A DNA stretch of 64,000 bases. It comes from Escherichia phage phAPEC8. The position numbers and the translations under genes are program-made. The notes under the pieces are model-generated. The model was given only the letters and a program-made list of their open reading frames with translations, ran no database searches and was not told the DNA's origin. The DNA is taken from sequence record NC_020079.1; one strand, given 5' to 3'. Below are positions 25,464-64,000 of the stretch, piece after piece (positions within the stretch are counted from its first letter, which is position 1; each line of letters begins with the position of its first letter).

Positions 25464-26117
25464 CTATATCAGACTTTCAAGGTATTTGTCAAGGGCTTCT
25501 TGATCACCTTGACAAACATAGCAACGGAAGTCTTGAGCCGAAGGTTGTTTATTTTCATCCCAGTCCCAATAAACATTACCCTTATAACGTGAACCAGGAA
25601 ACTCAAAAGAGGCTGTATGTGTAATGTATCCTGGGCCACCAGTGAAATCACAGAATGAGAATTGGGGGTATGCCGCCTTTACTGCCTCAATAAACCAAGC
25701 TTTACGATCTAAAGCTTCATTGATGCTATACGCATGTCTCTCCATTTCTTCCCACGTTTTCCAGACACTTCTCTCATCAGGAGAAAAGACAAGCCATTCT
25801 GGAAGGTACAGAGTGTCATAGTAATCATCATATTCGATCTCGGAGGCGCACGAAGCTGACTCCTCCAGTTTTGAGTAATCAAAAGCAGAATATACCCACC
25901 AACCATCTTCCAGTAACGCTTTGATAGGGACGAAGCCTTTATCAGCATATTGATCGAATTGTTTGACACGGTGGCTTGTGCAGTCTTCAAACTCACATTC
26001 TAAACGATATGCACCTTTTCGACGAGCCTCAAGACCGTGTGTACTGAAAATAACAACACTTCCTTCACCATCATTACGATCTACTTGATAAGCAACTACT
26101 GGTTTTGAATTTGACAT
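25464..26117 (-). CDS. hypothetical protein
   Basis: ORF tiling. Confidence 0.5.
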   Translation of the reverse strand: MSNSKPVVAYQVDRNDGEGSVVIFSTHGLEARRKGAYRLECEFEDCTSHRVKQFDQYADKGFVPIKALLEDGWWVYSAFDYSKLEESASCASEIEYDDYYDTLYLPEWLVFSPDERSVWKTWEEMERHAYSINEALDRKAWFIEAVKAAYPQFSFCDFTGGPGYITHTASFEFPGSRYKGNVYWDWDENKQPSAQDFRCYVCQGDQEALDKYLESLI

Positions 26118-37131: not shown

Positions 37132-37973
37132 TACCTCTCCTTATTAAGTAATACTGCTAAAGACTGTTCAATACCTTTATTTAAATCTGATTTTGTAAGA
37201 TAGTGACTGGTTACTAGTTGTGACTTCATCGGACGTGCTGCTGGAGCATTATAGGTTGAAGCTGATACCGCCGATATCTTAACAGGTTCTGGCATCTGTG
37301 TCAAGATCTTTTCCGCAAACTCCGCCCAAGAAATAAGATGGCTTCCTGCAAAATGGTAAGTCTTAACAGACCTTGACCAACCTGTTCTTAATACTTCAAA
37401 AATAGCTTCTGCTAAATCTGGAGCATATGTTGGACAAGAGAACTGATCAGCAACAATAATAAAATCACGTTGTCCATCATTATAGCGAGACAACATGGTT
37501 TTTAGAAAGTTATTTCCAAATTCGCTATATACCGAGGCTGTTCGAATAATATATGCATTTGGGTTAACTCCTCGCACCATTTTTTCACCAAGTTCTTTCG
37601 TATACCCATAATTGTTTATTGGGTTAGGTGTAGTATCTTCAAAAATAGGATGAGAATAATTAAAAATATAGTCTGTAGAAATATGCACAAAATCAATTTT
37701 AAGTTTGCTGCACACTGCCGCAATATTTGCAGGTCCATACGCATTAACAGCCAAAGCAGTAGCAAAATCATGTTCTGCTTTATCTACAGCCGTATAAGCG
37801 GCGCAATTAATAACACCATCTACATAATCTTCAATAATAGCGTTTCGCACAGCTTCAAAATTTGTAATATCTACACGTTCTTTAGGATAAATTAAAGATA
37901 CATTTGAAGGAGCCACTTTACGTAAAGCTTGTCCCAGTTGTCCATTACCGCCCAATACCAGATATGTTAGCAT
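37131..37973 (-). CDS. rmlD: dTDP-4-dehydrorhamnose reductase
   Basis: N-terminal GGNGQLG Rossmann motif; size and operon context. Confidence 0.8.
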   Translation of the reverse strand: MLTYLVLGGNGQLGQALRKVAPSNVSLIYPKERVDITNFEAVRNAIIEDYVDGVINCAAYTAVDKAEHDFATALAVNAYGPANIAAVCSKLKIDFVHISTDYIFNYSHPIFEDTTPNPINNYGYTKELGEKMVRGVNPNAYIIRTASVYSEFGNNFLKTMLSRYNDGQRDFIIVADQFSCPTYAPDLAEAIFEVLRTGWSRSVKTYHFAGSHLISWAEFAEKILTQMPEPVKISAVSASTYNAPAARPMKSQLVTSHYLTKSDLNKGIEQSLAVLLNKER

Positions 37974-38533
37974 ACACCCTCGCTACGTAACTGTTGAAAA
38001 GATTTAGCCATTGCATCTTTTGTTGATAGAATAGGTTTAAAACCTTCGTCAAAAATCATATCGAAGCCCCAATCGATCCCTATATCAGGATCATCCCAAC
38101 GTAAACTTTGTTCACTAGAAGGGTCGTATGGAGTTGTGCATTTGTATTCAAAGATAGCATCCATACTCAAAACTATAAAACCATGAGCCAAACCAGGCGG
38201 AAGCCAAAACTGCGTATGGTGTCGTGCACGAAGAACAACACCGTCCCAAGCACCGTAAGTTGGACTATCTTTACGTAAATCTACAGCGAAATCCAATACT
38301 TCCCCACTTACACAACGAACTAGCTTACCTTGCGGGTTATTTGTTTGAAAGTGCATTCCTCGCAAAACACCGAAGTTTGATTTAGACATGTTATCTTGAA
38401 CGAAAGTTTGTCTACCAATAATATCTTCGTATTTTTGTTCATTATATGTTTCTAGAAAGAAACCACGATCATCTTTATAAACGTCTGGTTTGATAATTAC
38501 CGCACCTTCAATTTTTGTTTTTTCTACTTTCAT
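37967..38533 (-). CDS. rmlC: dTDP-4-dehydrorhamnose 3,5-epimerase
   Basis: [35 protein letters not shown]; start at internal ATG. Confidence 0.9.
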
Positions 38534-39408
38534 TTTCTCTCCGCTAATTTGAGTAGGTATTGCCCGTACTCTGTTTTCTTCAGTGAGTTTCCATGATACA
38601 CCAAAGTCTCTAAAGAAATCCACCCTTTTTTGAAAGCAATTTCTTCCAAGCACGCAATCTTCAATCCTTGACAGTTCTCAATAGTCTGCACGAATTGACC
38701 AGCTTCCATCAGACTGGCGTGTGTTCCTGTGTCAAGCCAAGTAAATCCTCGTCCGAGAACTTCCACTTGTAACTTCCTGTCTTCTAGGTAGCTGCGATTG
38801 ATATCAGTGATCTCCAGTTCTCCACGCGCGGAAGGGGTTACTTCTAATGCACGTTGAATAACAGAGTTATCATAGAAATACAAACCTGTGACAGCATAAT
38901 CTGATTTAGGATTTTCAGGTTTCTCTTCAATAGAAATAGCTTGACGATTACTCCCAAATTCAACCACACCGAATCGTTCAGGATCTTTCACCAAATACCC
39001 GAAAATACAAGCTCCGCCCCAAACATCTACCATCTCACTGGCGTTAATCAGTAGTTTACCAAAGCTTTGTCCGAAGAATAGGTTGTCACCTAAAATAAGA
39101 GCAACAGAGTCTTCTCCGATAAAATCTTTACCTATGATGAAAGCTTCCGCAAGACCTCGTGGCTCGGATTGGATTGCGTAAGTGAGTTTTATCCCAAACA
39201 TAGACCCATCTCCGAGAAGATACTCAAAGTCTTCCTGATCACCTGGTGTGGTGATGATTAAAATATCCTTAATGTCAGCCAACATCAATACCGATAAAGG
39301 GTAGTAGATCATGGGTTTGTCATACACAGGGAGCAATTGCTTGCTCACACTGCGTGTTACCGGATGAAGGCGGGTTCCACTTCCTCCCGCCAAAATAATA
39401 CCTTTCAT
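38530..39408 (-). CDS. rmlA: glucose-1-phosphate thymidylyltransferase
   Basis: [18 protein letters not shown]. Confidence 0.9.
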
Positions 39409-39416
39409 AACCCTCC

Positions 39417-40409
39417 TTAAATTTTCTCACTCCACCATTGAGGGTTGTTTAAGTACCATTCAATCGTTGAGTAGAGATCTTGTTCAAATGTAGAGTTTGC
39501 ACTCCAGCCCAGTTCAGACTCTATCTTAGAAGGATTGATTTCATAACGCAAGTCATGTCCTTTACGATCTTCAACAAAAGTTATCAAGTTGGAAGAAGGG
39601 TAGGTTACTGCTTCTGGATGTACAGTATCCATATAGTCACAAACCATATAGATGATCTCCATATTGGTTTTGGGATTACGTGTTCCAACATTATACGTTT
39701 GACCTGGTTCTCCACCTGTTGCCACTTGAAGAATAGCTCGCGCATGATCCTCAACAAAAAGCCAGTCTCGCACCTGGTCGCCTTTACCATACACCGGAAT
39801 CTCTTTATTCGTCAAGATACTTGTGATGATTTTTGGGATCAGCTTTTCTGGATGTTGATAAGGCCCAAAGTTATTGGAGCAGTTGGTTATCACAACAGGC
39901 AAATCGTAGGTGCGGTGCCAAGCTTTCACAAGATGGTCAGATGCTGCCTTAGACGCACTGTACGGGCTTGAAGGGGCATAAGCTGTCTCTTCGGTAAAGG
40001 GAACGCCAGAGTCTGCCATATCGCCGTACACTTCGTCTGTGGAGACGTGTACGAACATCTTCAGTTTATTTTTTGGGAGGAGCCTTGCAGCTTCCAATAA
40101 ATTGTATGTACCGATAATATTGGAGTCGATGAAAACTCGTGGATTCTTGATAGAATTATCCACATGACTTTCTGCCGCTAAGTGAATGATGAAGTCAGGA
40201 TTGCACTCTACTACTAAACTTTTGACCTGGGTTTCGTTTGCCAAATCTGTCATGCTTAGTTTAACGTGAGTGATATCGCCTACATTCTCAATATCTGCTG
40301 CATAGCCCATCTTATCAACGACAAAAACTTCGTTATTAGGATCTTGACAAAGAGAGCGCACCACGGCACTCCCAATAAAACCAAGACCACCTGTTACCAG
40401 ATAGCGCAT
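39417..40409 (-). CDS. rmlB: dTDP-glucose 4,6-dehydratase
   Basis: [16 protein letters not shown]; extended SDR fold. Confidence 0.9.
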
Positions 40410-40418
40410 CAGTTCTCC

Positions 40419-40745
40419 TTACCAGACATGTTGAGAAATAATAGTTTCCGTTTTAATGTTATATTTTTCAAGTAGCTTTGCATAGGCTTCTTTTGCATTC
40501 TCATTCAATTGCTCAAGATCTACAGCTATGCTTCCCTCTCCGCCTTCTAAATCAAGGCCATATATGCAATAAGACTCATCCGCATCGTAGAAAGGAGAGA
40601 TGCGGCTTAAGTCCAGACCTTCTTGTAAGAACCAGTTAAAATCTCCATCAAATTCTTCTTCAATTCTAGGATCTTCTCCTACAGCCTCTTCCCATTTATT
40701 AAAAGGTGCACCCTGTAACATACGCCATTCAATATCAATACCCAT
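40419..40745 (-). CDS. hypothetical acidic protein
   Basis: ORF tiling. Confidence 0.5.
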   Translation of the reverse strand: MGIDIEWRMLQGAPFNKWEEAVGEDPRIEEEFDGDFNWFLQEGLDLSRISPFYDADESYCIYGLDLEGGEGSIAVDLEQLNENAKEAYAKLLEKYNIKTETIISQHVW

Positions 40746-40899
40746 TTTTCATCTCCTCCTCTTCTTGAGCAGCTTTAATAATTGCTTCATAAATATCGTA
40801 AGCAATGCCTCCACAACATCTAGCTTCGAAAGCTATTGCTTCTGCAATGTGATCTGTTAATTCTCGTGGAATACGGACATACTCTTTTTCATTCTCCAT
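40735..40899 (-). CDS. hypothetical small protein
   Basis: ORF; start set at internal ATG. Confidence 0.4.
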   Translation of the reverse strand: MENEKEYVRIPRELTDHIAEAIAFEARCCGGIAYDIYEAIIKAAQEEEEMKNGY

Positions 40900-41035
40900 C
40901 TTCCACCTCTTCTTTTTCAAAGACTACTACTCGTCCCTCACCATGACAATTCAGGCAAGGAAATGTTACCATAATTTCCACTTCCATCTGTCCAGTCCCA
41001 CCGCACACAGGACAAAAAATAAGTTTTTCAGCCAT
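40889..41035 (-). CDS. small zinc-ribbon protein (48 aa)
   Basis: ATG ORF below cutoff; CPVCGG ... CLNCHG; TAATG coupling. Confidence 0.4.
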   Translation of the reverse strand: MAEKLIFCPVCGGTGQMEVEIMVTFPCLNCHGEGRVVVFEKEEVEDGE

Positions 41036-41244
41036 TATTCCTCCTTAATTATTTCAAACTTGGCAACACCATTTACAATAATATGACCACAAGACATAAC
41101 TCCTAGCCAAGGATCGCCGTTTTTCTTCAGGCGTTTACCGAATACATCACAAAAACCATTCTTCATTTCGGAGGCTTCATAAGAAGCCCCTTTATCAAAA
41201 ACGTCTTTGAATGTGTCGATTATACCAACACATCTCAAAATCAT
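41035..41244 (-). CDS. hypothetical small protein
   Basis: ORF tiling. Confidence 0.45.
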   Translation of the reverse strand: MILRCVGIIDTFKDVFDKGASYEASEMKNGFCDVFGKRLKKNGDPWLGVMSCGHIIVNGVAKFEIIKEE

Positions 41245-42329
41245 TAGAAGTCAAGCTCCTCATCATCAGAGAGATCTTTGTTAGCTGAATTCAATTTGTA
41301 ATTAGTTAACTGAATCTCTTGGGCTGCTGACTGAATCAAATCAGGATTCAACCATTTTTCCATCCAAGCTAAAGGACTATGTTTAGGTGCTTTAAACTTG
41401 GCTTTCATTTTCAATCGACGATAAATAGGAGCAGCATTGAAATAAACCCACTGTTTAGACAATTCGGCGTTAAGACCTACAATAAAACGACCTTCACTAA
41501 ACAGGTAGTCACACCACTGTTCCTCTTGTTCAACAACAGTGTCGAGGATCAAAGTCAACTCTTCAATATTGTCTTCGTAAATTTTACGCCAAATTGGGTC
41601 ATGCATCAATGCATCAATTACAGCATAATCCATCTTAACATGCAAGATTTCATCTAGCATAATTTTCTGGATCAGTTTACAAGCCCCAACAAACAGTTGT
41701 TGTTCTGCCATAGCAAAAGTAGCAGAGAAGGAAGATATAAACTGAATACCTTCTAATCCAATCAGGGCTACCATCCCTTTAAGAATCAACAATCGAAGTT
41801 CATCGTTAGCTTCAATCAATCCTAGAGCATACTTATGACCAGCTTCTTCCAACTGACCCATGATATCAGCAATGATACCCATACGATTGAAAATTTTATC
41901 ATTAACCATAATCTGATTGATGACTTCAATTGGATCTGGAGTACATTGGCGGATTATTTCAGAATACGTTAACGCATGGAGAACTTCCATTTCACTCTGC
42001 TTCATCATCATAGCACAGGCTTCATTGTTACTCAAGAATGGAGAGAACAAAGTGATGATTGATTTTGCAAGAGAATCATTTTCCCATTGGAACGATAAGT
42101 TTTTAATCATAACGTCATAGTTGTTTTTAGAACAAGCTACGAAATCTTTACGTGTCTGATCCAGATTAACTTCGTTTTCATCCCAATCTTGTGCTTTTTG
42201 AAGTTTGTAGAGTTTGTGCATTTCTGGATAAGTTACGTTAACAGAATCAAAGATCCCTAATTGCTCCCCCAAAAATACTGGATATTTCCCTGTCTTGTAA
42301 ACTTCGTTGTGTAAATTAATTGCTGCCAT
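41244..42329 (-). CDS. nrdB: ribonucleotide reductase class Ia small subunit
   Basis: two E..H iron-ligand motifs (EVLH, EILH); size and adjacency to nrdA. Confidence 0.85.
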   Translation of the reverse strand: MAAINLHNEVYKTGKYPVFLGEQLGIFDSVNVTYPEMHKLYKLQKAQDWDENEVNLDQTRKDFVACSKNNYDVMIKNLSFQWENDSLAKSIITLFSPFLSNNEACAMMMKQSEMEVLHALTYSEIIRQCTPDPIEVINQIMVNDKIFNRMGIIADIMGQLEEAGHKYALGLIEANDELRLLILKGMVALIGLEGIQFISSFSATFAMAEQQLFVGACKLIQKIMLDEILHVKMDYAVIDALMHDPIWRKIYEDNIEELTLILDTVVEQEEQWCDYLFSEGRFIVGLNAELSKQWVYFNAAPIYRRLKMKAKFKAPKHSPLAWMEKWLNPDLIQSAAQEIQLTNYKLNSANKDLSDDEELDF

Positions 42330-55879: not shown

Positions 55880-56100
55880 TTTCCCTCCTTCACTTTAACC
55901 TCAAATTCTACAGGCTTACCCTCAATGTAAAAACACTGATACTCTGCCTTATCATCCTCATCACGAGGCCAAGTTACCAAGGAGTTATAGCAATCTTCTG
56001 GTGCTTTGAAGATGGTTTTAGTCTCCATAGTAACATTCCCATTAAGTGTTGCCAATACCACCCACCCAGCTACAGGGATCATAGTGCCTCCACTTTCCAC
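55876..56100 (-). CDS. hypothetical small protein
   Basis: ORF, ATGA overlap. Confidence 0.45.
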   Translation of the reverse strand: MESGGTMIPVAGWVVLATLNGNVTMETKTIFKAPEDCYNSLVTWPRDEDDKAEYQCFYIEGKPVEFEVKVKEGK

Positions 56101-56261
56101 GTTTTACCCTTATCAACCAAGGTCTTTGCTACAGCATACTCCTTCCCATTAACAAGGAAATAATAAACTATAAAAGATTTCCCGATTGTTACTGTCTTAG
56201 TAACCTCTACACGTTTAACACCTTGCATGTATTTTGCCTTACCGGAATAGAGTAAAATCAT
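56079..56261 (-). CDS. hypothetical small protein
   Basis: ORF tiling. Confidence 0.4.
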   Translation of the reverse strand: MILLYSGKAKYMQGVKRVEVTKTVTIGKSFIVYYFLVNGKEYAVAKTLVDKGKTWKVEAL

Positions 56262-56539
56262 TTTGCATTCCTCTTGTTGTTGATAACATCCATAGCAGTA
56301 TATGGTTTATTAGTGCCATGATACTCTAGAATCATTGGAGAGCCTTCTTGCACTACTTCAAAAATACCATAAACAGAACTTTCAGCAAATACCATTTGCT
56401 TCGTTCCTTCATCGTTTACAACGAGAGAAAACTTCTTACCTGTCCCGTTGAGGATCTCGTATTTCTTGCCAGCAGTGAATAATCCAGAGTACCACTCACT
56501 ATCTGTTGCTTTTACACACTTCAGGAAAGTCTTGATCAT
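56258..56539 (-). CDS. hypothetical protein
   Basis: ORF tiling. Confidence 0.45.
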   Translation of the reverse strand: MIKTFLKCVKATDSEWYSGLFTAGKKYEILNGTGKKFSLVVNDEGTKQMVFAESSVYGIFEVVQEGSPMILEYHGTNKPYTAMDVINNKRNAK

Positions 56540-56889
56540 TTCTTTTTGCTCCTCTTCTTAGATTTATCATACAAACCTAACACAGCAGCCTCTTTTGCAC
56601 AAGTAGGGACTGAAGTCATTCCTCTTCGCTTTGCATCGGGCAGGTTGAGCGTCCACCATCCGAACCAGTAGATTTGGTCTTCCGTGAGTGGTTCAGCCAT
56701 TGGATCTGCCTCCTGCTTCTCAAGACGTTGCAACGCTTCTTCAATCTTCTCAATTGGTGTGTCAAAGACGAATGCCTCCGTATCAAACTTATCTTTCTTA
56801 GGAACTGATTTGGCTACTTTGAGAACCTCGTTTTTCGGTTTCTTAGTAACGTTCTTTGGCTTTGATAACTTCTTCGGTGTTTTCGCCAC
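56536..56889 (-). CDS. Lys-rich basic protein
   Basis: N-terminal KKxxK repeats. Confidence 0.45.
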   Translation of the reverse strand: MAKTPKKLSKPKNVTKKPKNEVLKVAKSVPKKDKFDTEAFVFDTPIEKIEEALQRLEKQEADPMAEPLTEDQIYWFGWWTLNLPDAKRRGMTSVPTCAKEAAVLGLYDKSKKRSKKK

Positions 56890-57082
56890 TTACTACCTCC
56901 ATACGATCTAAAAAGTCATTCACAAATCTCCAATAACGTTGACCTGTTCTAAGATCTTCATAGATAACAACAGGATCAAACACTTTAGATATTCCGGCAG
57001 GTTTTGGAAATTCCACGACCGTATATAAGCCACCTTTTGATACACAAGAATAGGTTACACCTGTAATTGGATATTTGCTCAT
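56843..57082 (-). CDS. hypothetical small protein
   Basis: ORF; 47 nt overlap with downstream gene. Confidence 0.4.
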   Translation of the reverse strand: MSKYPITGVTYSCVSKGGLYTVVEFPKPAGISKVFDPVVIYEDLRTGQRYWRFVNDFLDRMEVVSGENTEEVIKAKERY

Positions 57083-57273
57083 TTCTTTACGTACTCCATG
57101 ATTGGGGTATGGTCGCCAGTGAGCGTCACACGGTTGTAGGAAACGTTTTGTGTCTTCAACGTCTCAACCCATTCCAGGAAATGTTCTTTCGCTTCTGTGT
57201 AGTTCTGGGTGCCTTTAACAACATGAATATCATCCAGGGTGACACGGAATACCATTTGAATAACGTCTTTCAT
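57079..57273 (-). CDS. hypothetical small protein
   Basis: ORF tiling. Confidence 0.4.
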   Translation of the reverse strand: MKDVIQMVFRVTLDDIHVVKGTQNYTEAKEHFLEWVETLKTQNVSYNRVTLTGDHTPIMEYVKK

Positions 57274-57386
57274 TTCTTACCTCCTTTGTTGTCAAAATAG
57301 CTTACCAGAACATCGTGAACCACACAAATGGCAAAAATCAGAACAATTGTTGCCAGGATTGGGTTCTCACTAATTAGTGCTATCAT
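57270..57386 (-). CDS. small membrane peptide (38 aa)
   Basis: internal ATG with SD GGAGG; hydrophobic core. Confidence 0.35.
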   Translation of the reverse strand: MIALISENPILATIVLIFAICVVHDVLVSYFDNKGGKK

Positions 57387-57693
57387 CTTTAACCACCTCC
57401 AATTGCCTTTCGAGTTTGACTCTGTTTGAGAACTGATAATGACACAACTTACATTGCATGTCAACAATCTGATCGTGATTTAACCCTACAATTTTAACTT
57501 CCTTTGCACCATCCCACTCCAAATACTCAAAGCCATCCAAATGATTACTCTTGTCCAACAGGAATGCTATCTGCTGCCATTCAATCTGAATGTCATTTAA
57601 ATGATATGCTGCACAGAAGATATCCTCATAGTAAAAGACGATCATTGTCATTGCTTCGTCCAGCACAACTACTTCTTGTCTTGTAAATCTCAT
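57370..57693 (-). CDS. hypothetical protein
   Basis: first gene of minus block; SD GGAGG. Confidence 0.5.
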   Translation of the reverse strand: MRFTRQEVVVLDEAMTMIVFYYEDIFCAAYHLNDIQIEWQQIAFLLDKSNHLDGFEYLEWDGAKEVKIVGLNHDQIVDMQCKLCHYQFSNRVKLERQLEVVKDDSTN

Positions 57694-57699
57694 TCTAGC

Positions 57700-58164
57700 C
57701 TCCTAAACGCGTCTCTGACGCACTTTTTATATATAAGATGATAAATCACCTTACCTAGTAAGTAAGCTTGCTCTACGAGCCTCTTATGAAGCTTAAGTTA
57801 TACTATTGCTACCTGTTTAAGCAAGGTTTTGCACACAGAAAATAATTTTTAATAAAACTCTTGACTTTTGTGTTCGAAGTATGCTACCCTAGAAATCTAT
57901 TAACGAGCGCAGCGAGTTAAGGTTTTAGGTTGTTGATGTAGTACTCTGTACTAAAGCACTGTACTCCGTACTAGATTAATAATTATTAAATATTAATAAA
58001 TAATTATTAGATCTAACAAACAGGTACAGTGTATCAGAACTGGTACGTACATATCAACTTCTATCAATTAAAAAATAAAATAATAAATTATTATAAATAA
58101 TACTTGATCTATAAATCAGTATGAAGTACAGTACGTAACATCTTAACAAGAATGGAGGTGTGCA
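57700..58164. promoter_or_regulatory. divergent intergenic control region with GTAC-containing repeats and AT-rich palindromes
   Basis: TGTACT/AGTACAG half-sites about 8 times; TAATAATTATTAAATATTAATAAATAATTATTA; minus-strand TTGCTT/TATAAC promoter. Confidence 0.5.
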
Positions 58165-58350
58165 ATGATTAGTGAGAATCCGTGCAAATGGCATCATGTG
58201 CCTATTAAAGATTGTATGTCTTGTAATCCACGTTCTATTTATAACATTGCATCTTATGATGATGACAATGTGTTAGACGATGATGAAGGCTGGGAGGATT
58301 TAGATTGGACTGGTTATGAAACCAAAAAGGATAAAATTATTCCTAGTTGA
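58165..58350 (+). CDS. hypothetical small acidic protein
   Basis: ORF, SD GGAGGTG. Confidence 0.5.
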   Translation: MISENPCKWHHVPIKDCMSCNPRSIYNIASYDDDNVLDDDEGWEDLDWTGYETKKDKIIPS

Positions 58351-58387
58351 CTTAAGATATCCTTCGTGCTAAACTAGAAGTGAGGAG

Positions 58388-58639
58388 ATGCCGATCACTC
58401 CCCATTTGGGGTTCGAAGGATATATGCAAAATAGCTTTTATTTTAGGTGCCGTGCTTGTAATAGGCATTTGACAAACCACTCCAGACGTGATAAAAATGG
58501 AGTCATCAAGGAATCAGACCTCTGTTCTATTTGCACAGGTTTGGCTTTTGATGATAGTCCCGAAAGGGTTTATCAGCATCAATGTATAACAGACGTTCTC
58601 GTGTCAAACTTGGTAGAGGACGAACAACTAACAGATTAG
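58388..58639 (+). CDS. small zinc-finger protein
   Basis: CRACN ... CSICTG pairs; SD GAGGAGA. Confidence 0.5.
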   Translation: MPITPHLGFEGYMQNSFYFRCRACNRHLTNHSRRDKNGVIKESDLCSICTGLAFDDSPERVYQHQCITDVLVSNLVEDEQLTD

Positions 58640-58647
58640 GAGGAACA

Positions 58648-58896
58648 ATGTCTCTATTAGAAAAACACGTGTTTGAAGATGGTAACGGCAATGCAGTTTT
58701 TCTTTTCCATCCAGAAAAATACACATCTGAAAACAATGGTACAACTTCTATTGTAATCACTAAAGATGTTAAAGTTATTGATTTCTTGGCTCTGATGCGA
58801 GAGATGGATCTTGAAATTAATACTTTTAACGCAGAAGCTTTGGTTGTTGCTCTTCTGGAAAAGAAAGATAGTGAAGAAGTAGCAGAATATGCTTAA
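58648..58896 (+). CDS. hypothetical protein
   Basis: internal ATG with SD TAGGAGGAA. Confidence 0.5.
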   Translation: MSLLEKHVFEDGNGNAVFLFHPEKYTSENNGTTSIVITKDVKVIDFLALMREMDLEINTFNAEALVVALLEKKDSEEVAEYA

Positions 58897-58903
58897 ATAA
58901 CTA

Positions 58904-58938
58904 TTGACAAACGTATCCTTCATATGTTAGGATACGTT
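58904..58938 (+). promoter_or_regulatory. promoter (TTGACA) overlapped by 9-bp inverted repeat AACGTATCC..GGATACGTT
   Basis: hexamer and palindrome read directly. Confidence 0.5.
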
Positions 58939-59142
58939 CATCAAGTGTGGTAACAGGGTCGTTGACTTTTGTTAAGAGGGGCTTGCACTGCGGTAGTGTT
59001 AGAGACTACTTCTTCAGAGGTTAGCTACCAAAGAGGAAAAGGAATAGTCTCGGCTCAAGAACTTTTACGCTGAAAGTTGGGCTTGGTCTTAGAGAATGTA
59101 GCGGTTCTCTACAATCGTCAGCGTCTCTGTTACCACATTTAT

Positions 59143-59214
59143 GGCCCTGTAGCTCAATGGGAGAGCTGTCGGCTCATAACCGATAGGTAGCTGGATCGAA
59201 ACCAGCCAGGGCCA
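59143..59214 (+). tRNA. tRNA-Met (anticodon CAT)
   Basis: manual cloverleaf: acceptor GGCCCTG/CAGGGCC, loop CTCATAA, T-loop GATCGAA, CCA encoded. Confidence 0.75.
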
Positions 59215-59219
59215 CCAAC

Positions 59220-59291
59220 GTCTTTATGGTGTAATGGATAGCACAGGAGTCTTCTAAACTCTTAGTCAAGGTTCGATTCCTTGTAAAGACA
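59220..59291 (+). tRNA. tRNA-Arg (anticodon TCT)
   Basis: acceptor GTCTTTA/TAAAGAC, loop CTTCTAA, T-loop TTCGATT. Confidence 0.7.
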
Positions 59292-59528
59292 CCAGAACAT
59301 TTTAACATGAATTAGCTCAAGTGATTTGAACCCACTACTGATCATGGTGGCAGAGAATGAGGCAAGTATGTCAGACATTATAAACAAAGGCCACGGTTAC
59401 ATTAGAAGACATAAATGCTCGAAGAGCACCGTTCGTGGAGAACGGGGGTTGGTGGAGTCACCATTCATGGTAAAATGTTTTAAAAAACTATTGACAACTA
59501 ACATTATTTTATGTTAGATTATAAGTAT

Positions 59529-59616
59529 GGAAGGGCAAATCGACGTGGCGACGAAAACGGTCTTGAAAACCGCCGAGCTTGAAAGAGCCTTGGGAGTTCG
59601 ACTCTCCCTCCTTCCG
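59529..59616 (+). tRNA. tRNA-Ser (anticodon TGA), type II
   Basis: long variable arm; loop CTTGAAA; T arm GGGAG-TTCGACT-CTCCC. Confidence 0.7.
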
Positions 59617-59623
59617 CCAGATT

Positions 59624-59706
59624 GGTAGATTGGTGAAATGGTAGCCACGACAGTTTGCTAAACTGTAGTCGGAAACGGCGTGTAGGTTCGAGTCCTACAT
59701 CTACCG
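59624..59706 (+). tRNA. tRNA-Ser (anticodon GCT), type II
   Basis: acceptor GGTAGAT/ATCTACC; stem ACAGT/ACTGT loop TTGCTAA; long variable arm. Confidence 0.7.
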
Positions 59707-59836
59707 CCAAGTTGTTTTTAATGTAGCGTTGCGGCTACTTACTTTAGCAGAGTAAATCTTCGGCAAGTGGCGGTAACCACTTTACCGATACCGCATAGTC
59801 AGTAAGGCGAATACTGGCTACTTTAAAAACAATTTT

Positions 59837-59917
59837 GTGAGATTGGCAGAGTGGTCGATTGCGGGGGACTGTAAATCCCTTCTGAAAGGCGCGGTGGTTC
59901 GAATCCATCATCTCACA
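59837..59917 (+). tRNA. tRNA-Tyr (anticodon GTA), type II
   Basis: acceptor GTGAGAT/ATCTCAC; loop CTGTAAA; long variable arm. Confidence 0.7.
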
Positions 59918-59926
59918 CCAAATTAA

Positions 59927-60009
59927 GATGAGTTGGCTGAATGGTTTAAGCGGCGGACTGTTAATCCGTGTTCGAAAGAACGATATAGGTTCAAATCCTA
60001 TACTCATCG
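59927..60009 (+). tRNA. tRNA-Asn-like (anticodon GTT) with 15-nt variable arm
   Basis: anticodon arm GCGGA-CTGTTAA-TCCGT matches E. coli tRNA-Asn; extra GTTC-GAAA-GAAC hairpin in variable region. Confidence 0.55.
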
Positions 60010-60019
60010 CCAGAATTAT

Positions 60020-60096
60020 GGACTTGTAGAGTTAAGGTAAACCCCCAGTCGCCAAGAGGCTTCTGGAATTGCAGGTATCGAATCCTGCCGAGTCCC
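60020..60096 (+). tRNA. tRNA-like element, non-canonical, anticodon unresolved
   Basis: 7-bp acceptor GGACTTG/CGAGTCC and T-arm-like GCAGG..CCTGC, but no canonical anticodon arm and 8-nt T-loop. Confidence 0.3.
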
Positions 60097-60102
60097 AGCT
60101 TT

Positions 60103-60174
60103 GCTCCTATAGTATAATGGCTATTACAACGGTTTTGTAATCCGTGGATCTCTGTTCGATTCAGAGTGGGAGCA
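60103..60174 (+). tRNA. tRNA-Thr (anticodon TGT)
   Basis: acceptor GCTCCTA/TGGGAGC; loop TTTGTAA; T arm CTCTG-TTCGATT-CAGAG. Confidence 0.65.
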
Positions 60175-60452
60175 CCAACACAACATTAAGGGCACTGTGA
60201 TTGATCGTCGTATCCTGTGCACAAGGTCTGTTCGAAAGACAGTGTTCTTAGTATTGTGTTGATCACACAAAAAGAGTTACCTGAAACTTGACCGGAGTAG
60301 GGTTGGATGGGGCAAAAGAAGAAGCGGCTCTCCCATCGACAGCAACGAAGAATAATATTTGACTTTGGTTTTGTATTATTTTAAGTTAGCTTACCGAACG
60401 TAGGGCTAGTCACCCAACGGGATACTCGTCACTGTCCCACTCAATAAAACTA

Positions 60453-60483
60453 TTGACAACCAATAGTAAAATGTAGTATAGTA
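60453..60483 (+). promoter_or_regulatory. promoter (AACTATTGACAA ... TAGTAT) upstream of tRNA-Gly
   Basis: -35 TTGACA, 16 bp spacer, -10-like hexamer. Confidence 0.5.
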
Positions 60484-60493
60484 AAGATGTAGG

Positions 60494-60564
60494 GCGTTCT
60501 TGGTGTAGCGGTAGCATTCCGTCCTTCCAAGTCGGCGGCACGAGTTCGATCCTCGTAGAACGCT
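60494..60564 (+). tRNA. tRNA-Gly (anticodon TCC)
   Basis: acceptor GCGTTCT/AGAACGC; D-loop AGCGGTAG; loop CTTCCAA; T arm ACGAG-TTCGATC-CTCGT. Confidence 0.7.
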
Positions 60565-60666
60565 CCAAATTATTTAATAAAGGGTTGCCAGAAAACTTTC
60601 TCTTTTACTCATGGTTTTCTCCTTCTCTCACACCTCTTCTGGTTGCCCTTCATTAAATGATTTATT

Positions 60667-60739
60667 GGTTTGTAGTGTAGTCCGGTAGCACACGACACTT
60701 TGACTGTCGTAGGTTTGGTTCAAATCCAGACAGACCAGC
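60667..60739 (+). tRNA. tRNA-Gln (anticodon TTG)
   Basis: acceptor TGGTTTG/CAGACCA; stem CGACA/TGTCG loop CTTTGAC. Confidence 0.7.
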
Positions 60740-60834
60740 CATATAACAAAGGTGAGTCACTACCTCAAGTGTGAAGTTAAAAACGAGGAGCCGCCGAACA
60801 CTTTCTTTTGCGGCGTACCTTTAGAATGTTATGA

Positions 60835-60908
60835 CGGAATTTAGCTCAGTTTGGTAGAGTGTACGCTTTGGGAGCGTATTGTCGCAGGTTCGAATCCTGC
60901 AATTCCGA
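60835..60908 (+). tRNA. tRNA-Pro (anticodon TGG)
   Basis: acceptor CGGAATT/AATTCCG; D arm TAGCTCAGTTTGGTAGAG; loop TTTGGGA; T arm GCAGG-TTCGAAT-CCTGC. Confidence 0.8.
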
Positions 60909-60917
60909 CCAATTAAA

Positions 60918-60988
60918 TGTTTCGTAGTTCAATGGTAGAACCCACGACTGATAATCGTGAGATACAAGTTCGATTCTTGTCGAAACAA
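60918..60988 (+). tRNA. tRNA-Ile (anticodon GAT)
   Basis: acceptor TGTTTCG/CGAAACA; stem CACGA/TCGTG loop CTGATAA. Confidence 0.75.
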
Positions 60989-60993
60989 CCAGT

Positions 60994-61062
60994 TTCCCGT
61001 TAGACTTACAGGATAAGAGTTCCACAATTTATTGTGACGCTGGTTCGAATCCAGCACGGGAT
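60994..61062 (+). tRNA. degenerate tRNA-like element (possible tRNA pseudogene)
   Basis: 6-bp acceptor TCCCGT/ACGGGA and canonical T arm GCTGG-TTCGAAT-CCAGC, but anticodon region is a palindrome with no 7-nt loop. Confidence 0.3.
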
Positions 61063-61069
61063 ACATAAT

Positions 61070-61145
61070 AGCGGGATAGAGGAGTCTGGTCGTCCTCGCC
61101 AGTTTCATATGCTGGAGATCATTGGTTCAAATCCAATTCCCGCCT
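61070..61145 (+). tRNA. tRNA with CAT anticodon (Met, initiator or Ile-lysidine)
   Basis: D arm GAGG..CCTC; stem CCAGT/GCTGG loop TTCATAT; A1-C72 mismatch. Confidence 0.6.
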
Positions 61146-61355
61146 CCAAATATCGCTTGCCAGCGGTATCTTTGAAGACCTTGCCTGGTTCCTTCTAAGA
61201 TGGAGGGGTGCGACTCCTTAACGCACAATTATAATAAAGCATTTCAAATTAACAGTATTTATTAGCCTCCTTATTGGAGGCTTTTTGCTATCTATTGAAT
61301 AAAACTTGACTTATTATTTTTTATATGTTAAGATAAAGTTTAGGAGGATTTTATT

Positions 61356-61652
61356 ATGCCTAAACTAAAACGTGGTCGTGGAAGACCAACAGCCGAAATG
61401 CAACAGATTTACGCAATGGATGCGGCGCAAGCAAGTGTAAAAGAATTATTTGCAGAGCATTATTTAGAAGCTATGCGGTATATTGTTGAACTTGTTAATG
61501 ATAAGGATGCAGCAAAACCTCTCCGCTTCCAAGCAGCTAAAGCTATTAAAGAGCAAGTAGAAGAATGGTTAGAAGAACATTATGAAGCTATGGAAGAAGA
61601 AACCCCTGCCGTGCAGAATACAGATGACGTTCCTAAAAAGATCGTAATCTAA
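61356..61652 (+). CDS. hypothetical protein with N-terminal AT-hook-like motif
   Basis: KRGRGRP motif; promoter TTGACT at 61306; SD AGGAGG. Confidence 0.5.
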   Translation: MPKLKRGRGRPTAEMQQIYAMDAAQASVKELFAEHYLEAMRYIVELVNDKDAAKPLRFQAAKAIKEQVEEWLEEHYEAMEEETPAVQNTDDVPKKIVI

Positions 61653-61699
61653 TCCCTCTCCTCTCTTGGGGCTTTGCCCCTCCTCCTTGTTATTTTTAA

Positions 61700-61735
61700 C
61701 ACCCCTCTCCGAAAGGTTAGGGGCTTTTTTATTTT
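61700..61735 (+). terminator. Rho-independent terminator
   Basis: CCCCTCTCCGAAAGGTTAGGGG hairpin + TTTTTTATTTTT. Confidence 0.6.
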
Positions 61736-61814
61736 TAATGCTTGCAATTATATATCATTTTGTGATAAGATCAGATATGAGGAGGATAAAATATGCGCAA
61801 TTTTGTAGTTAAAA

Positions 61815-62030
61815 ATGATTTTAACCGTTCTTCTTATCATAAAGATAAAAAGAATGATTACACACGGGCTTGGAACTTGGAGGAAGAACTTTATGATGAC
61901 AGAGAAGACTTGGGAAGAGATCCTAGCGGAGGCTCAACCAATGGAAGTGAAGAAGATAGTTAACAACGCCCCTTCTCTTCCTAAAATAAAATTTTATGAG
62001 AAAGTAGAAGATAATGAATCTAAAGACTAA
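61815..62030 (+). CDS. hypothetical small protein (frame and start uncertain)
   Basis: track ORF; competing 59-aa ORF 61793-61969 in another frame has the stronger SD. Confidence 0.3.
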   Translation: MILTVLLIIKIKRMITHGLGTWRKNFMMTEKTWEEILAEAQPMEVKKIVNNAPSLPKIKFYEKVEDNESKD

Positions 62031-62406
62031 AACTGTATTAAGTTTTGTTTTAATTGTTGTTCTTATTCTTGCCGGAATGTTTGCTTATAACAAGATACGT
62101 GAGTCTGGCTACAAAGATGGTGTTGCCTATCAAACGCAAGTATATCAAGCAGCCCAAGCAAAAGCAAAACAAGATTTTGATGTTCTTCAAAAAAGAGCAG
62201 ATGAAGAAAGAGCATTATTAAATACTCAAATAAACAACTTGTCTAAAAACAATGCACAATTAAAAGCAGATTTAGAGAAGAAGAAACAAACGATCAATGA
62301 GGATACAACGAATTATGCAAAAACTAATTCTGGCAGTATGTCTTGCTTTGCCCCTAATGATGACGGGTTGTTCATCATCAACAAAAGTTTCCCCAGTTCT
62401 TATTGA
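62014..62406 (+). CDS. i-spanin (Rz-like) candidate
   Basis: N-terminal TM helix then Gln/Ala/Lys-rich coiled-coil-like region; overlaps lipoprotein ORF. Confidence 0.5.
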   Translation: MNLKTKTVLSFVLIVVLILAGMFAYNKIRESGYKDGVAYQTQVYQAAQAKAKQDFDVLQKRADEERALLNTQINNLSKNNAQLKADLEKKKQTINEDTTNYAKTNSGSMSCFAPNDDGLFIINKSFPSSY

Positions 62407-62641
62407 TGAGTGTAAGGCTGTAGCCATAGAAAAGGTTAAAGGTCCAGATTCGGACTTGATGGATAAAGTATCGACACCTGTGCCATACACTAAAAATCAA
62501 ATTGCAAAAGGGGTTAGTAGATCTGAAGTTGTTAACAACCAAACTCAAAACAATGCTCTTTGGGAGCAAGATAGACGAAAGGTTCTAGGTTTACAAACAT
62601 ATATTAAAACACTGCAAGAAAAAGGTATTATTGCTGAATAA
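62315..62641 (+). CDS. o-spanin (Rz1-like) lipoprotein candidate
   Basis: lipobox-like LMMTGC after hydrophobic signal; +1 frame overlap with i-spanin. Confidence 0.5.
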   Translation: MQKLILAVCLALPLMMTGCSSSTKVSPVLIDECKAVAIEKVKGPDSDLMDKVSTPVPYTKNQIAKGVSRSEVVNNQTQNNALWEQDRRKVLGLQTYIKTLQEKGIIAE

Positions 62642-62650
62642 GGAGGGAAT

Positions 62651-64000
62651 GTGGCAAAGAAAAAGGCAGCAGGTAGTTTAGCTGGAGTAGATATTGAAGT
62701 AAAGGCTCAACCAGGTAAACAGACTCTTGCAATGGATTTAATGCCAGAAGTTATGATTTATGGTGGTGCCGCTGGATGTGTTTCTGCTGAAACGGAATAT
62801 CTTACAAAAGATGGTTGGAGGCAGATTAGTGAATATTCGGGAGAGGATATTTACCAATACAATCCTAAGAATAAGCGTTTAGAATTGGTAACACCTTATT
62901 TTGTAGAATATGATTTAAATGGAGATAACCTATACAGAATAACAAATGGTGTAGGATTGTTCCAAGAACTTAGTATGGAACACCGTTTTGTATTCTATAA
63001 GAAAAAGAAATCAAAGAAACATTTCGAGATTCTTGTAGGAGATCTTATTGCATTACAGCAAATAGGAAAACCCCTGCGAGGTTATGTAGAAAATCCATTC
63101 GGTAAACGTGTTCCTTTTAACATACCTGGTAAAAAGAGCACTTACTTAAAAATACACGAGGTTATTTCAACAGATGATAAGAAATATTGTTTTGAGACTC
63201 CAAGCAGCTATATTGTCTTTAGACGTGGCGATCACTGCTTCGTTACTGGGAATAGCGGCAAGTCTCGTCTGCTATTGCTGAAAGCTTTAAAATACGCCTA
63301 CAAAGACCCTTTGTTTGGTGGAATACTTTTCCGTAAGAACACCACTGCTCACCGTAAACCAGGTGGTCTGTTTACAGAAGCAAAACGTTTGTATCTTCCT
63401 TTACAACCACACGTAAAAGAAAGTACAATGGATATCATTTTTGAAGCCACTGGTGGTGGAACCCTCAAATTTGACCATTTGGAAAATGATAACGTAACAG
63501 CAGAAACAAACCATCAGGGTACACAGTATTCAATGGTAGGTTTTGACGAGTTAACCCACTTCACACAATATGAAATGCTCTATCTTCTGGGACGTATGCG
63601 TTCAGAGTCAGAAACAAGTTTCATGTTGTGCACATGTAACCCTGACGCAGATAGTTGGGTTTTGAATTGGGTGTTACCTTATCTTGATGAGGGTGGTTAT
63701 CCTAGAGAAGATATGTGTGGTAAACAAAAATATTTCATCATTGTTAACGATGAACCTGTTTTTGCTGACACACCTGAAGAACTGAAAGAAAAATATCCAG
63801 AGAACTGTTTCATGGAAAACCCTAATACAGGGGAGACAGTTGTTATTGAACCACAAACTTTCGTATTTATTGGTGGGACAATATTTGATAACCCAGAACT
63901 CATTAGGCTTAACCCTAATTACTTAGCACAGCTTAAATCACAAACAGCTATCAAAAGAGCACAGCTTCTGGACGGTTGTTGGTTTGCACGTATCCAGAAA
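62651..64000 (+). CDS. terL: terminase large subunit-like P-loop ATPase (runs off window end), interrupted by mini-intein
   Basis: GTG start after SD AGGAGGG; Walker B MVGFDELTHF; canonical Walker A GAAGSGKS only if 62777-63253 is removed. Confidence 0.55.
   Translation, partial: MAKKKAAGSLAGVDIEVKAQPGKQTLAMDLMPEVMIYGGAAGCVSAETEYLTKDGWRQISEYSGEDIYQYNPKNKRLELVTPYFVEYDLNGDNLYRITNGVGLFQELSMEHRFVFYKKKKSKKHFEILVGDLIALQQIGKPLRGYVENPFGKRVPFNIPGKKSTYLKIHEVISTDDKKYCFETPSSYIVFRRGDHCFVTGNSGKSRLLLLKALKYAYKDPLFGGILFRKNTTAHRKPGGLFTEAKRLYLPLQPHVKESTMDIIFEATGGGTLKFDHLENDNVTAETNHQGTQYSMVGFDELTHFTQYEMLYLLGRMRSESETSFMLCTCNPDADSWVLNWVLPYLDEGGYPREDMCGKQKYFIIVNDEPVFADTPEELKEKYPENCFMENPNTGETVVIEPQTFVFIGGTIFDNPELIRLNPNYLAQLKSQTAIKRAQLLDGCWFARIQK
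62777..63253 (+). mobile_element. mini-intein (159 aa) in terminase P-loop
   Basis: starts CVSAETEY (block A-like), SMEH (block B-like), ends ...FVTGN before Ser +1; no endonuclease domain. Confidence 0.5.

Follow-up and report, generated by a model that had tools for sequence, protein, structure and literature searches.

Inverted repeats that overlap promoters are well known as repressor operators, for example lambda OR/OL and the LexA boxes. Hairpins can also bound phage transcripts, as in the early mRNAs of T7, which carry protective hairpins at their 3' ends after processing by ribonuclease III (RNase III), and the tRNA cluster of T4 additionally contains the stable RNAs species 1 and 2. 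A further arrangement is found in T4-type phages, where elements termed PeSL pair a sigma-70-like promoter with a stem-loop by which transcription from upstream is attenuated (Arbiol et al. 2010, PMC2839356; Comeau et al. 2014, PMC4122927). Here, we analyzed a 64,000-nt stretch of Escherichia phage phAPEC8 (NC_020079.1), hereafter referred to as the window, with a focus on three promoters in its tRNA region (P1, P2 and P3). The original prediction held that two of these are overlapped by operator-like inverted repeats, suggesting repressible or timed expression. The observation itself is confirmed and the operator and regulatory interpretation is supported in part: one of three repeats, that at P1, is a real selected stem.

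Like lambda OR/OL and the LexA boxes, the dyad at P1 lies over the spacer, the -10 hexamer and the start of a sigma-70 promoter. In contrast to these operators, it is present only once, its sequence differs between the clades, the spacing of its half-sites varies, and its arms reach up to 16 bp. The parallel to T7 and T4 lies in a long, presumably co-transcribed precursor with mRNA, tRNAs and stable RNAs, in the stems at the boundaries, and in a hairpin that directly follows a stop codon and lacks a U-tract. The P1 element has, however, no homology to the T4 and T7 elements and no Rfam match, and its stem is shorter than typical RNase III sites. P1 resembles a PeSL in that a stable stem-loop and a sigma-70-like promoter preceded by AT-rich sequence are located in an intergenic gap beside small open reading frames (ORFs) of unknown function. 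Promoter and stem both lie within the 46-nt gap between the stop codon of an 82-aa ORF and a 203-nt structured RNA, in agreement with the published PeSL definition (PMC2839356). Unlike in a PeSL, the stem-loop overlaps the promoter instead of flanking it, and has a mixed composition without G-run/C-run or U-tract. It is present once, whereas PeSL motifs are repeated, flank ORFans and are prone to recombination, and the element that follows it is a stable RNA and not an ORFan. Given a unique, promoter-overlapping stem that is not of the G-run/C-run type, P1 would not count as a member of the PeSL group, and the comparison appears to hold for the working mode, a promoter/stem-loop composite, and not for membership.

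Results

Comparison with relatives indicates selection for pairing at P1

The P1 stem-loop occupies positions 58904-58944 on the plus strand. Its 16-nt arms (58904-58919 and 58929-58944) are 88% paired and cover the whole promoter from the -35 hexamer to +5. The inner stem consists of ten perfect pairs between AACGTATCCT (58910-58919) and AGGATACGTT (58929-58938), which enclose the 9-nt loop TCATATGTT, and is separated by a 2x2 internal loop (CA/CA) from an outer TTGA/TCAA stem. The two perfect inverted repeats originally described, AACGTATCC (58910-58918) with GGATACGTT (58930-58938) at P1 and CTAACAT with ATGTTAG at P2, are thus both present; the repeat at P1 is larger than had been stated, and a third one at P3 had been overlooked. 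The predicted RNA fold at P1 has an energy of -18.5 kcal/mol and a z-score of -4.2, or -4.9 on a tighter window. A hairpin over the promoter is not a general rule, as 15 other promoters outside the tRNA group have a mean fold z of about 0. Perfect repeats of at least 10 bp with a loop of 3-15 nt occur four times in the window, compared to 1.0 in shuffled sequences, and the P1 repeat is one of them.

We compared relatives at three levels, that is, a genus-level set (L003, L009, L012-L016; 96-99% identity), a sister clade comprising phiWec179/188, PsgM04F, one IMG/VR contig and one metagenome contig (L001, L005-L008; about 73% identical around P1), and Justusliebigvirus ALITA and phi92 from another genus (L002, L018). 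In the sister clade, the P1 element reads ttgacaAGCGTGTCTTattttgttAAGATACGCTttatcaa. Five of the 20 arm positions differ, and all ten pairs hold: an A-T pair is replaced by G-C and a C-G pair by T-A, both compensatory, and a further A-T pair is changed to G-T. Even the change within the -10 hexamer, from TAGGAT to TAAGAT, is matched by a C>T change in the opposite (left) arm. Additional pairs form inside and outside of the sister-clade stem, and the distance from arm to arm is 18 nt (8-nt loop) instead of the 19 nt (9-nt loop) in the window. The single G(left)-T(right) pair of the sister clade corresponds to G-U in plus-strand RNA and to C-A on the other strand. When five substitutions were placed at random, every pair was retained, with no more than one G-T, in 2.3% of the trials for transitions only and in 0.4% at a transition-to-transversion ratio of 2:1. 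Although loop and flanks have diverged, the fold z is about -4.9 to -5.0 in both haplotypes.

Within the genus, the only single-nucleotide polymorphisms (SNPs) inside the P1 element affect the 2x2 internal loop, and each makes the stem longer. WPEC1 (L015) gains one pair through C58939>T, while CA>TG in B15 (L014) yields a perfect 16-bp stem (TTGACAAACGTATCCT with AGGATACGTTTGTCAA; -25.8 kcal/mol, z -8.3); the two phages are possibly related by descent. Across some 150 kb of sequence of this type, represented by the window and the rest of the genome of phage vB_EcoM_ASO2A (ASO2A; L010, L011), the P1 palindrome is unique, and a search with up to four mismatches gave only weak chance matches. 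No further P1 haplotypes were found in IMG/VR (queried with the upstream ORF and the conserved start of the RNA), in JGI metagenomes or in a phage collection (441-nt and 81-nt queries), and a scan of GTDB genomes with a 17-mer returned 18 unrelated chance matches. Taken together, the compensatory changes, the fold z in both haplotypes, the stem-lengthening SNPs and the uniqueness of the element indicate that pairing of the P1 repeat is under selection, which makes some function tied to the palindrome likely.

Two simple roles of the P1 sequence were rejected. The stem is absent from the output of the terminator scan and is followed by CAUCAAGUGUGG, and without a U-tract it does not qualify as an intrinsic terminator. 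The half-site AACGTATCCT occurs 12 times in the window with at most one mismatch, compared to 3.2 expected copies and none of 100 shuffled sequences reaching this number. The ten extra sites (e.g. 7153, 16226, 21208, 41961 and 51816) lie on both strands and all within coding sequence, and as none of them has an inverted partner, they do not form an operator regulon. This over-representation is probably compositional.

P1, P2 and P3 have the features of conserved host-type promoters

All three promoters lie on the plus strand, are preceded by the context AACTA and have an exact TTGACA -35 hexamer followed by an 18-nt spacer. P1 (58899-58933) has its -35 at 58904-58909, a TG at 58925-58926 and the -10 hexamer TAGGAT at 58928-58933. 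In P2 (59486-59520), the -35 is located at 59491-59496, the TG at 59512-59513 and the -10 hexamer TAGATT at 59515-59520. P3 (60448-60482) has its -35 at 60453-60458 and its -10 hexamer TATAGT at 60477-60482; it matches the consensus at 11 of 12 positions, lacks the TGn motif and has the best -10 of the three. With 10-11 of 12 positions, P1-P3 rank at the top of a consensus scan. They share with the sigma-70 extended -10 promoters of E. coli, as used by early coliphage genes, the hexamers TTGACA and TAnnnT, the TGn at P1 and P2, an A-rich sequence upstream and a spacing of 17-18 nt, although their 18-nt spacers differ from the optimum of 17 nt. Predicted promoters of the same kind occur in the relative rV5, where 11 of 33 have an extended -10 (PMC3606486).

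The relatives point to constraint on exactly these motifs. In the sister clade, P1 reads TATTGACA-17-TAAGAT with the TGT retained, P2 reads GTGTTGACA-18-TAGATT and P3 CTATTGACA-18-TATAGT. The TG at positions -15/-14 of P1 and P2 is kept as TGTTA(G/A)nnT. At P2, TTGACA-18-TAGATT together with TTTTATGT is retained in both the sister clade and ALITA. ALITA has CTTGACA-18-TAGATT before tRNA-Ser(TGA) and CTTGACA-18-TAGAGT before tRNA-Gly, both with TGT and with unrelated spacers, so that hexamers, TGn and spacing of P2 and P3 are shared at orthologous tRNA positions while spacer and flanks vary. Across the relatives, only TTGACAA and the -10/TGn are invariant, and SNPs within the genus hit flanks, spacer and leader, and never a hexamer. 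Since hexamers, TGn and spacing are kept while spacers and flanks change, P1-P3 are likely working promoters, as had been proposed for this region, and we infer that they are host sigma-70 promoters of the early type of this phage, which re-initiate transcription within the tRNA block. As promoters, they are ordinary new members of a thoroughly known kind. Six promoters of the class TTGAC(A/T)-17/18-(TGn)-TAnnnT occur in the 3.5-kb block (at 57861, 58347, P1, P2, P3 and 61306). Elsewhere, members of this class are densely spaced in the early region and few in number in the structural module.

If RNA synthesis is taken to begin about 7 nt downstream of the -10, the start sites would lie near A58940 (P1), A59527 (P2) and G60489 (P3). 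The distances to the structured element that follows are then 3 nt (closing stem of the 203-nt RNA), 2 nt (tRNA-Ser(TGA)) and 5 nt (tRNA-Gly at 60494), respectively. P1-P3 thereby differ from the early sigma-70 promoters of coliphages in lying inside a cluster of tRNAs and non-coding RNAs, with predicted starts 2-5 nt before the mature RNA ends. They would restart transcription at three points of a block of about 3.4 kb, and given this position of the starts, they would raise the dose of the downstream tRNAs and RNAs independently of read-through from upstream.

An extended -35 context common to the three promoters had also been noted, at coordinates (58904, 59491 and 60453) that mark the first T of TTGACA. 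Indeed, the plus strand contains exact copies of AACTATTGACAA at 58899-58910, 59486-59497 and 60448-60459, and in the 150 kb the exact 12-mer occurs only at P1-P3. With at most one mismatch there are four sites in the window compared to 0.83 expected, a number that none of 100 shuffled sequences reached. The sister clade nevertheless lacks this context at P1 and P2, where the counterparts are AAGTATTGACAA and GGTGTTGACAA (AACTA replaced by AAGTA and GGTG, respectively), and within the genus B15 and Ro121lw lack it at P3, where they have AAGTCTTGACAA (AACTA replaced by AAGTC). This argues against a functional extended -35. As only TTGACAA is invariant among the relatives, the threefold identity is, judged by this comparison, a lineage-specific coincidence or the product of local homogenization rather than something that the promoters require.

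The repeats at P2 and P3 are not maintained

At P2, a perfect 7-bp inverted repeat is formed by CTAACAT (59498-59504) and ATGTTAG (59511-59517), and at P3 by ACTATTG (60449-60455) and CAATAGT (60461-60467), which lie over the -35. The dyads of P1, P2 and P3 are unrelated in sequence. Folding at P2 (z -1.8 to -2.0) and P3 (z -0.8 to -2.1) is matched by a few percent (about 3-5%) of the shuffled sequences or more, and perfect repeats of at least 7 bp with a loop of 3-15 nt number 87 in the window, or one in about 735 bp, compared to 56 ± 6 in shuffles.

The right arm at P2 belongs to an extended -10 block, TTTTATGTTAGATT, that is identical in all three lineages, while the left arm lies in the freely varying spacer. 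In three members of the genus (L012, L014, L016), this arm reads CAAACAT through an uncompensated T>A change; in the sister clade it reads TCAACAT or TCAGCAT and in ALITA GCAAGAT. The P3 repeat is down to 5 bp in phiWec188 and PsgM04F (L005/L007) and gone in B15 and Ro121lw (L014/L016), again uncompensated. Both repeats were therefore rejected as operators of importance, including the one at P2 that had been regarded as operator-like. They are rather dispensable by-products of AT-rich spacers beside the conserved extended -10 and -35 contexts, as far as can be told from the compared sequences.

Discussion

A hairpin in read-through RNA as the preferred explanation

While the selection for pairing at P1 follows from the comparison of haplotypes, the mode of action of the stem has to be inferred. 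We are inclined, at somewhat better than even confidence, towards an explanation in which P1-P3 are sigma-70 promoters and the P1 stem serves as an RNA hairpin in read-through transcripts, in a PeSL-like composite and not as an operator. The transcript initiated at P1 cannot itself contain the stem, because it starts inside the right arm. The region would, however, be transcribed from upstream, since two conserved promoters point into it and the terminator scan detected no strong plus-strand terminator between 57861 and 61264. The first of these promoters (57861-57890; TTGACT-18-TACCCT with TGn), which is also the first of the plus-strand block, was found in a promoter scan and has an aligned counterpart in the sister clade (L005, 2607). 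The second (58347-58375; TTGACT-17-TAAACT with TGn) overlaps the stop codon of a 61-aa ORF and reads TTGACT-17-TACACT in the sister clade.

Read-through from 57861 and 58347 would carry the P1 stem in the RNA. There, a hairpin of 14-16 bp would form right after the stop codon of the 82-aa ORF (58648-58896; PHROG 15056, function unknown), which lies 7 nt before the stem, and would abut the roughly 22-bp stem that closes the 203-nt RNA. Such a hairpin would mark the boundary between mRNA and stable RNA, and its role would be to protect the 3' end of the upstream mRNA, or to define it, once the downstream RNAs have been excised, or else to attenuate incoming transcription. P1 and its stem would then represent a compressed promoter/stem-loop composite of the PeSL kind. 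The surroundings are consistent with an RNA-level role, as the cluster is a chain of tightly folded RNAs with paired ends, long closing stems and z-scores of -4 to -6. The view of the P1 repeat as operator-like is supported as far as selection on the repeat is concerned; the single copy, the free arm sequence, the shifted spacing, the 16-bp arms, the G-U pair on the plus strand and the lack of a recognizable DNA-binding domain in the adjacent ORFs favor a nucleic-acid stem over a repressor site.

A similar arrangement exists in ALITA, where the tRNA-Gly promoter follows the stop codon of a coding sequence and is enclosed by an unrelated stem of high GC content (z -3.4). This stem, AGCCTCT-tgacaa-AGGGGCT around the -35 (L002, 3981-4000), reads as a terminator on the minus strand. 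Further repeats around the -35 of tRNA-cluster promoters in ALITA are AACTAG...CTAGTT (1871-1894) and AACTACTTG-acaag-CAAGATAGTT (2680-2703).

Several points weigh against this explanation. With 14 pairs interrupted by a 2x2 loop, or 16 uninterrupted pairs in the case of B15, the stem is short for RNase III, whose sites usually comprise about 20 bp or more of double-stranded RNA, often with an internal loop; the adjacent closing stem reaches about 22 bp. Without a U-tract, the P1 stem is no classical terminator. Symmetric evolution would also be expected of a site bound by a dimeric protein. The covariation at P1 derives from two deep haplotypes and two SNP variants. The ALITA stem is uninformative as a replicate, since it shows no covariation, its genus is at least 96% identical there and a G-T pair is weakened by the sole SNP. 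That P1-P3 are active, where they start and whether upstream transcripts read through are all predictions, as a search of the open-access literature turned up no transcript mapping (start sites or 3' ends) for Phapecoctavirus. Moreover, a repeat of at least 7 bp at all three promoters is improbable by chance (estimated at about 3-4% each), and the promoters of the tRNA cluster as a group tend to negative fold z-scores while other promoters do not, so some weak shared pressure might act on the repeats of P2 and P3 as well. As their joint occurrence is somewhat unlikely, we based the decision on the evolutionary comparison.

Alternative explanations

It is doubtful that the P1 palindrome is a cis-regulatory DNA switch, worked by a dimeric phage regulator or by supercoil-driven extrusion, that times the 203-nt RNA and tRNA-Met/Arg. 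In the more probable of these two forms, which we still consider unlikely, a dimeric phage or host protein occupies spacer, -10 and start and silences P1 at a set time, so that the 203-nt RNA and tRNA-Met/Arg are shut off as well. This corresponds to the original prediction, narrowed down to P1. The perfect 10-bp dyad indeed takes the classic position for occlusion over spacer, -10 and +1, it is held in both clades by symmetric changes as co-evolution with a dimer would produce, and the roughly 280 mostly unannotated ORFs of the phage could include such a protein. No Pfam domain, and hence no DNA-binding domain, was detected in the four ORFs flanking P1, which match only PHROGs of unknown function. 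The dyad that overlaps the core promoter is an operator feature present at P1, while P2 and P3 have just 7-bp AT-rich dyads. Three of the five features that define operators are missing: the recognition sequence is not conserved (5 of 20 arm positions differ between the clades), half-site spacing is not fixed but shifts by 1 bp, and there are no multiple or shared sites, the palindrome being the single one in about 150 kb. In addition, the B15 dyad with 16 bp per arm (41 bp in total) goes far beyond usual operators, and the only imperfect pair is a G-T that fits plus-strand RNA. As P2 and P3 lack any sequence related to the P1 dyad, the three promoters would not be co-regulated by such a protein.

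Somewhat less probable still is that no repeat is functional and that the P1 palindrome is a historical accident, for instance a small inverted duplication in a highly conserved region. With identities of 99% or more around P1 among 62 genomes, conservation within the genus says little; the deep haplotypes number only two, the 2.3% of trials under transitions only is not vanishingly rare, and P2 and P3 demonstrate that such repeats arise and decay. An accident is disfavored by a z of about -4.9 in both haplotypes despite diverged loop and flanks, and by two SNP variants that lengthen the stem while none shortens it. Moreover, a perfect repeat of at least 10 bp is expected about once per 64 kb, yet that of P1 sits exactly on a promoter.

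We regard it as improbable to a further degree that P1-P3 are not used as promoters at all, the cluster being transcribed only from upstream and the matches being conserved for other reasons such as RNA processing signals. This would agree with the lack of start-site data in the open-access literature, with the nine promoters marked by the annotators of ASO2A, which include none of P1-P3, and with the consensus scan, whose 25 sites overall compare to 21.9 in shuffled sequences. P1-P3 nonetheless stand out from this background by three exact TTGACA hexamers and 10-11 of 12 matches at the top of the list. Their hexamers, spacing and TGn are kept across two genera while the spacers vary, and such hexamer-specific conservation speaks for a DNA-level promoter constraint rather than an RNA motif.

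Finally, control of an engineered E. coli promoter by cruciform extrusion was reportedly achieved by Horwitz and Loeb in 1988, and at P1 the arms cover the full promoter with an AT-rich centre and 16 perfect bp in B15, and pairing, not sequence, is the conserved trait; yet it is highly unlikely that a cruciform or hairpin on supercoiled DNA removes the -35/-10 duplex here in a manner sensitive to supercoiling or replication, as the unpaired centre of 9 nt (or 6-8 nt) with 10-bp inner arms is poor for extrusion, the G-T of the sister clade becomes a C-A mismatch in the hairpin of the other strand, and every other promoter of the class lacks such a structure.

Implications

Phapecoctavirus and phi92-like phages are widely used as therapy candidates, and their records come without promoters in the tRNA cluster. 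P1-P3 together with the promoters at 57861, 58347 and 61306 would define the transcription units of this cluster, and on sequence grounds they place it in the host-polymerase, early-type programme. The real interest lies in the finding that one promoter and one selected stem-loop share 41 bp, so that the same bases must serve both recognition by RNA polymerase and pairing. With respect to the preferred hairpin explanation, P1 is thus a compact and testable example of overlapping constraints at the DNA and the RNA level. The conserved structured RNAs of the cluster are probably more rewarding than its promoters.

Genomic context and additional observations

The roughly 3.5 kb around the tRNA cluster are 96-98% identical to complete genomes of Phapecoctavirus, with ASO2A as the best match. 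According to the taxonomy of the matched genomes, this genus comprises phAPEC8-like myoviruses of about 150 kb within the Stephanstirmvirinae. Minus-strand genes end near 57693, and the plus-strand block begins after that point. The co-directional block (57861-61282, about 3.4 kb) contains three small ORFs (58165-58896), 12 tRNAs and several structured RNAs other than tRNAs. Within the tRNA cluster (59143-61148), ARAGORN called 11 tRNAs, to which tRNA-Ser(TGA) at 59529-59615 on the plus strand has to be added. The latter gave a match of 37 bits to the Rfam tRNA clan, is annotated by tRNAscan in ASO2A and, although missed by ARAGORN in the window, is called by it at the equivalent place in close and sister relatives, among them L001. 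The unit ends with a strong intrinsic terminator on the plus strand (61264-61282; AGCCTCC-TTATT-GGAGGCT followed by TTTTG) that is also annotated in ASO2A. Downstream of this terminator and an AT-rich stretch follows a plus-strand promoter (61306-61334; TTGACT-17-TAAGAT with TGn), and behind it lie genes leading to the large terminase; the order of terminator, AT-rich stretch and promoter that is typical of PeSL is thus present at the unit end (61264-61334).

In Klebsiella phage ZCKP1 (match at 37601-41820), the block contains an insertion of about 700 bp with an annotated XRE-family/HigA-like helix-turn-helix antitoxin, which indicates that the block accepts foreign cassettes. A T4-late-like motif, TATAAATA, is located at 58092-58099, between divergently oriented genes and ahead of the first plus-strand ORF, and has three plus-strand copies only in the window.

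The 203-nt RNA downstream of P1 (58940-59142, plus strand) is closed by a stem of about 22 bp between 58943-58965 and 59119-59141, has a minimum free energy of -76.8 (z -5.9) and ends 1 nt before tRNA-Met(CAT) at 59143. An alifold analysis with the sister clade (three sequences) yielded 73 pairs, 12 of them with changes on both sides. The RNA had no Rfam match at E<=1 and was found in Phapecoctavirus only (69 phage records); at the same threshold, Rfam returned only tRNAs and sub-threshold noise over 56000-64000. The spacers between the tRNAs at 59295-59485, 59710-59836 and 60568-60665 are likewise folded, with termini in long closing stems and z-scores of -4.3, -4.0 and -5.6, respectively. 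The last of them combines a stem of 24 bp with a CU-rich loop and shows hardly any change even in the sister clade. The unit at 59295-59485 is automatically annotated as a small coding sequence in some relatives; here, the changes G59340>A and C59400>T, connected via a G/T-only intermediate (Mt1B1_P17), concern positions that may pair, although alifold did not pair them. Two tRNA-like remnants (60013-60102 and 60992-61069; z -2.5 and -3.5), reported by neither ARAGORN nor Rfam, have an acceptor-like stem and a T-arm of the GGTTCGAATCC type and lack a callable anticodon arm.

In the early region, the window contains between 240 and 5000 a series of cassettes with promoters at 240, 1273, 1752, 2115, 3167, 4473 and 4985, and similar ones occur at 146.9-151.6 kb of ASO2A (L011, 36900-41100). 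Each has the layout TTGACA-16/17-TAnnnT, a GC-rich stem-loop from about +8 (e.g. GGGCGGCAATGGTGCCGC), the ribosome-binding site AGAAGAGAGAAAAATCATG and a small ORF. The ASO2A record annotates these stem-loops as terminators about 10 nt downstream of the promoters. The cassettes resemble the PeSL of T4-type phages and occur in repeated copies, a feature that the P1 stem lacks. A perfect 10-bp inverted repeat, TTTGTCAAGG-12 nt-CCTTGACAAA, lies at 25485-25516 and places a TTGACAA on each strand, of which the one on the minus strand is accompanied by a good TGn and a TATAGT -10 (promoter 25492).

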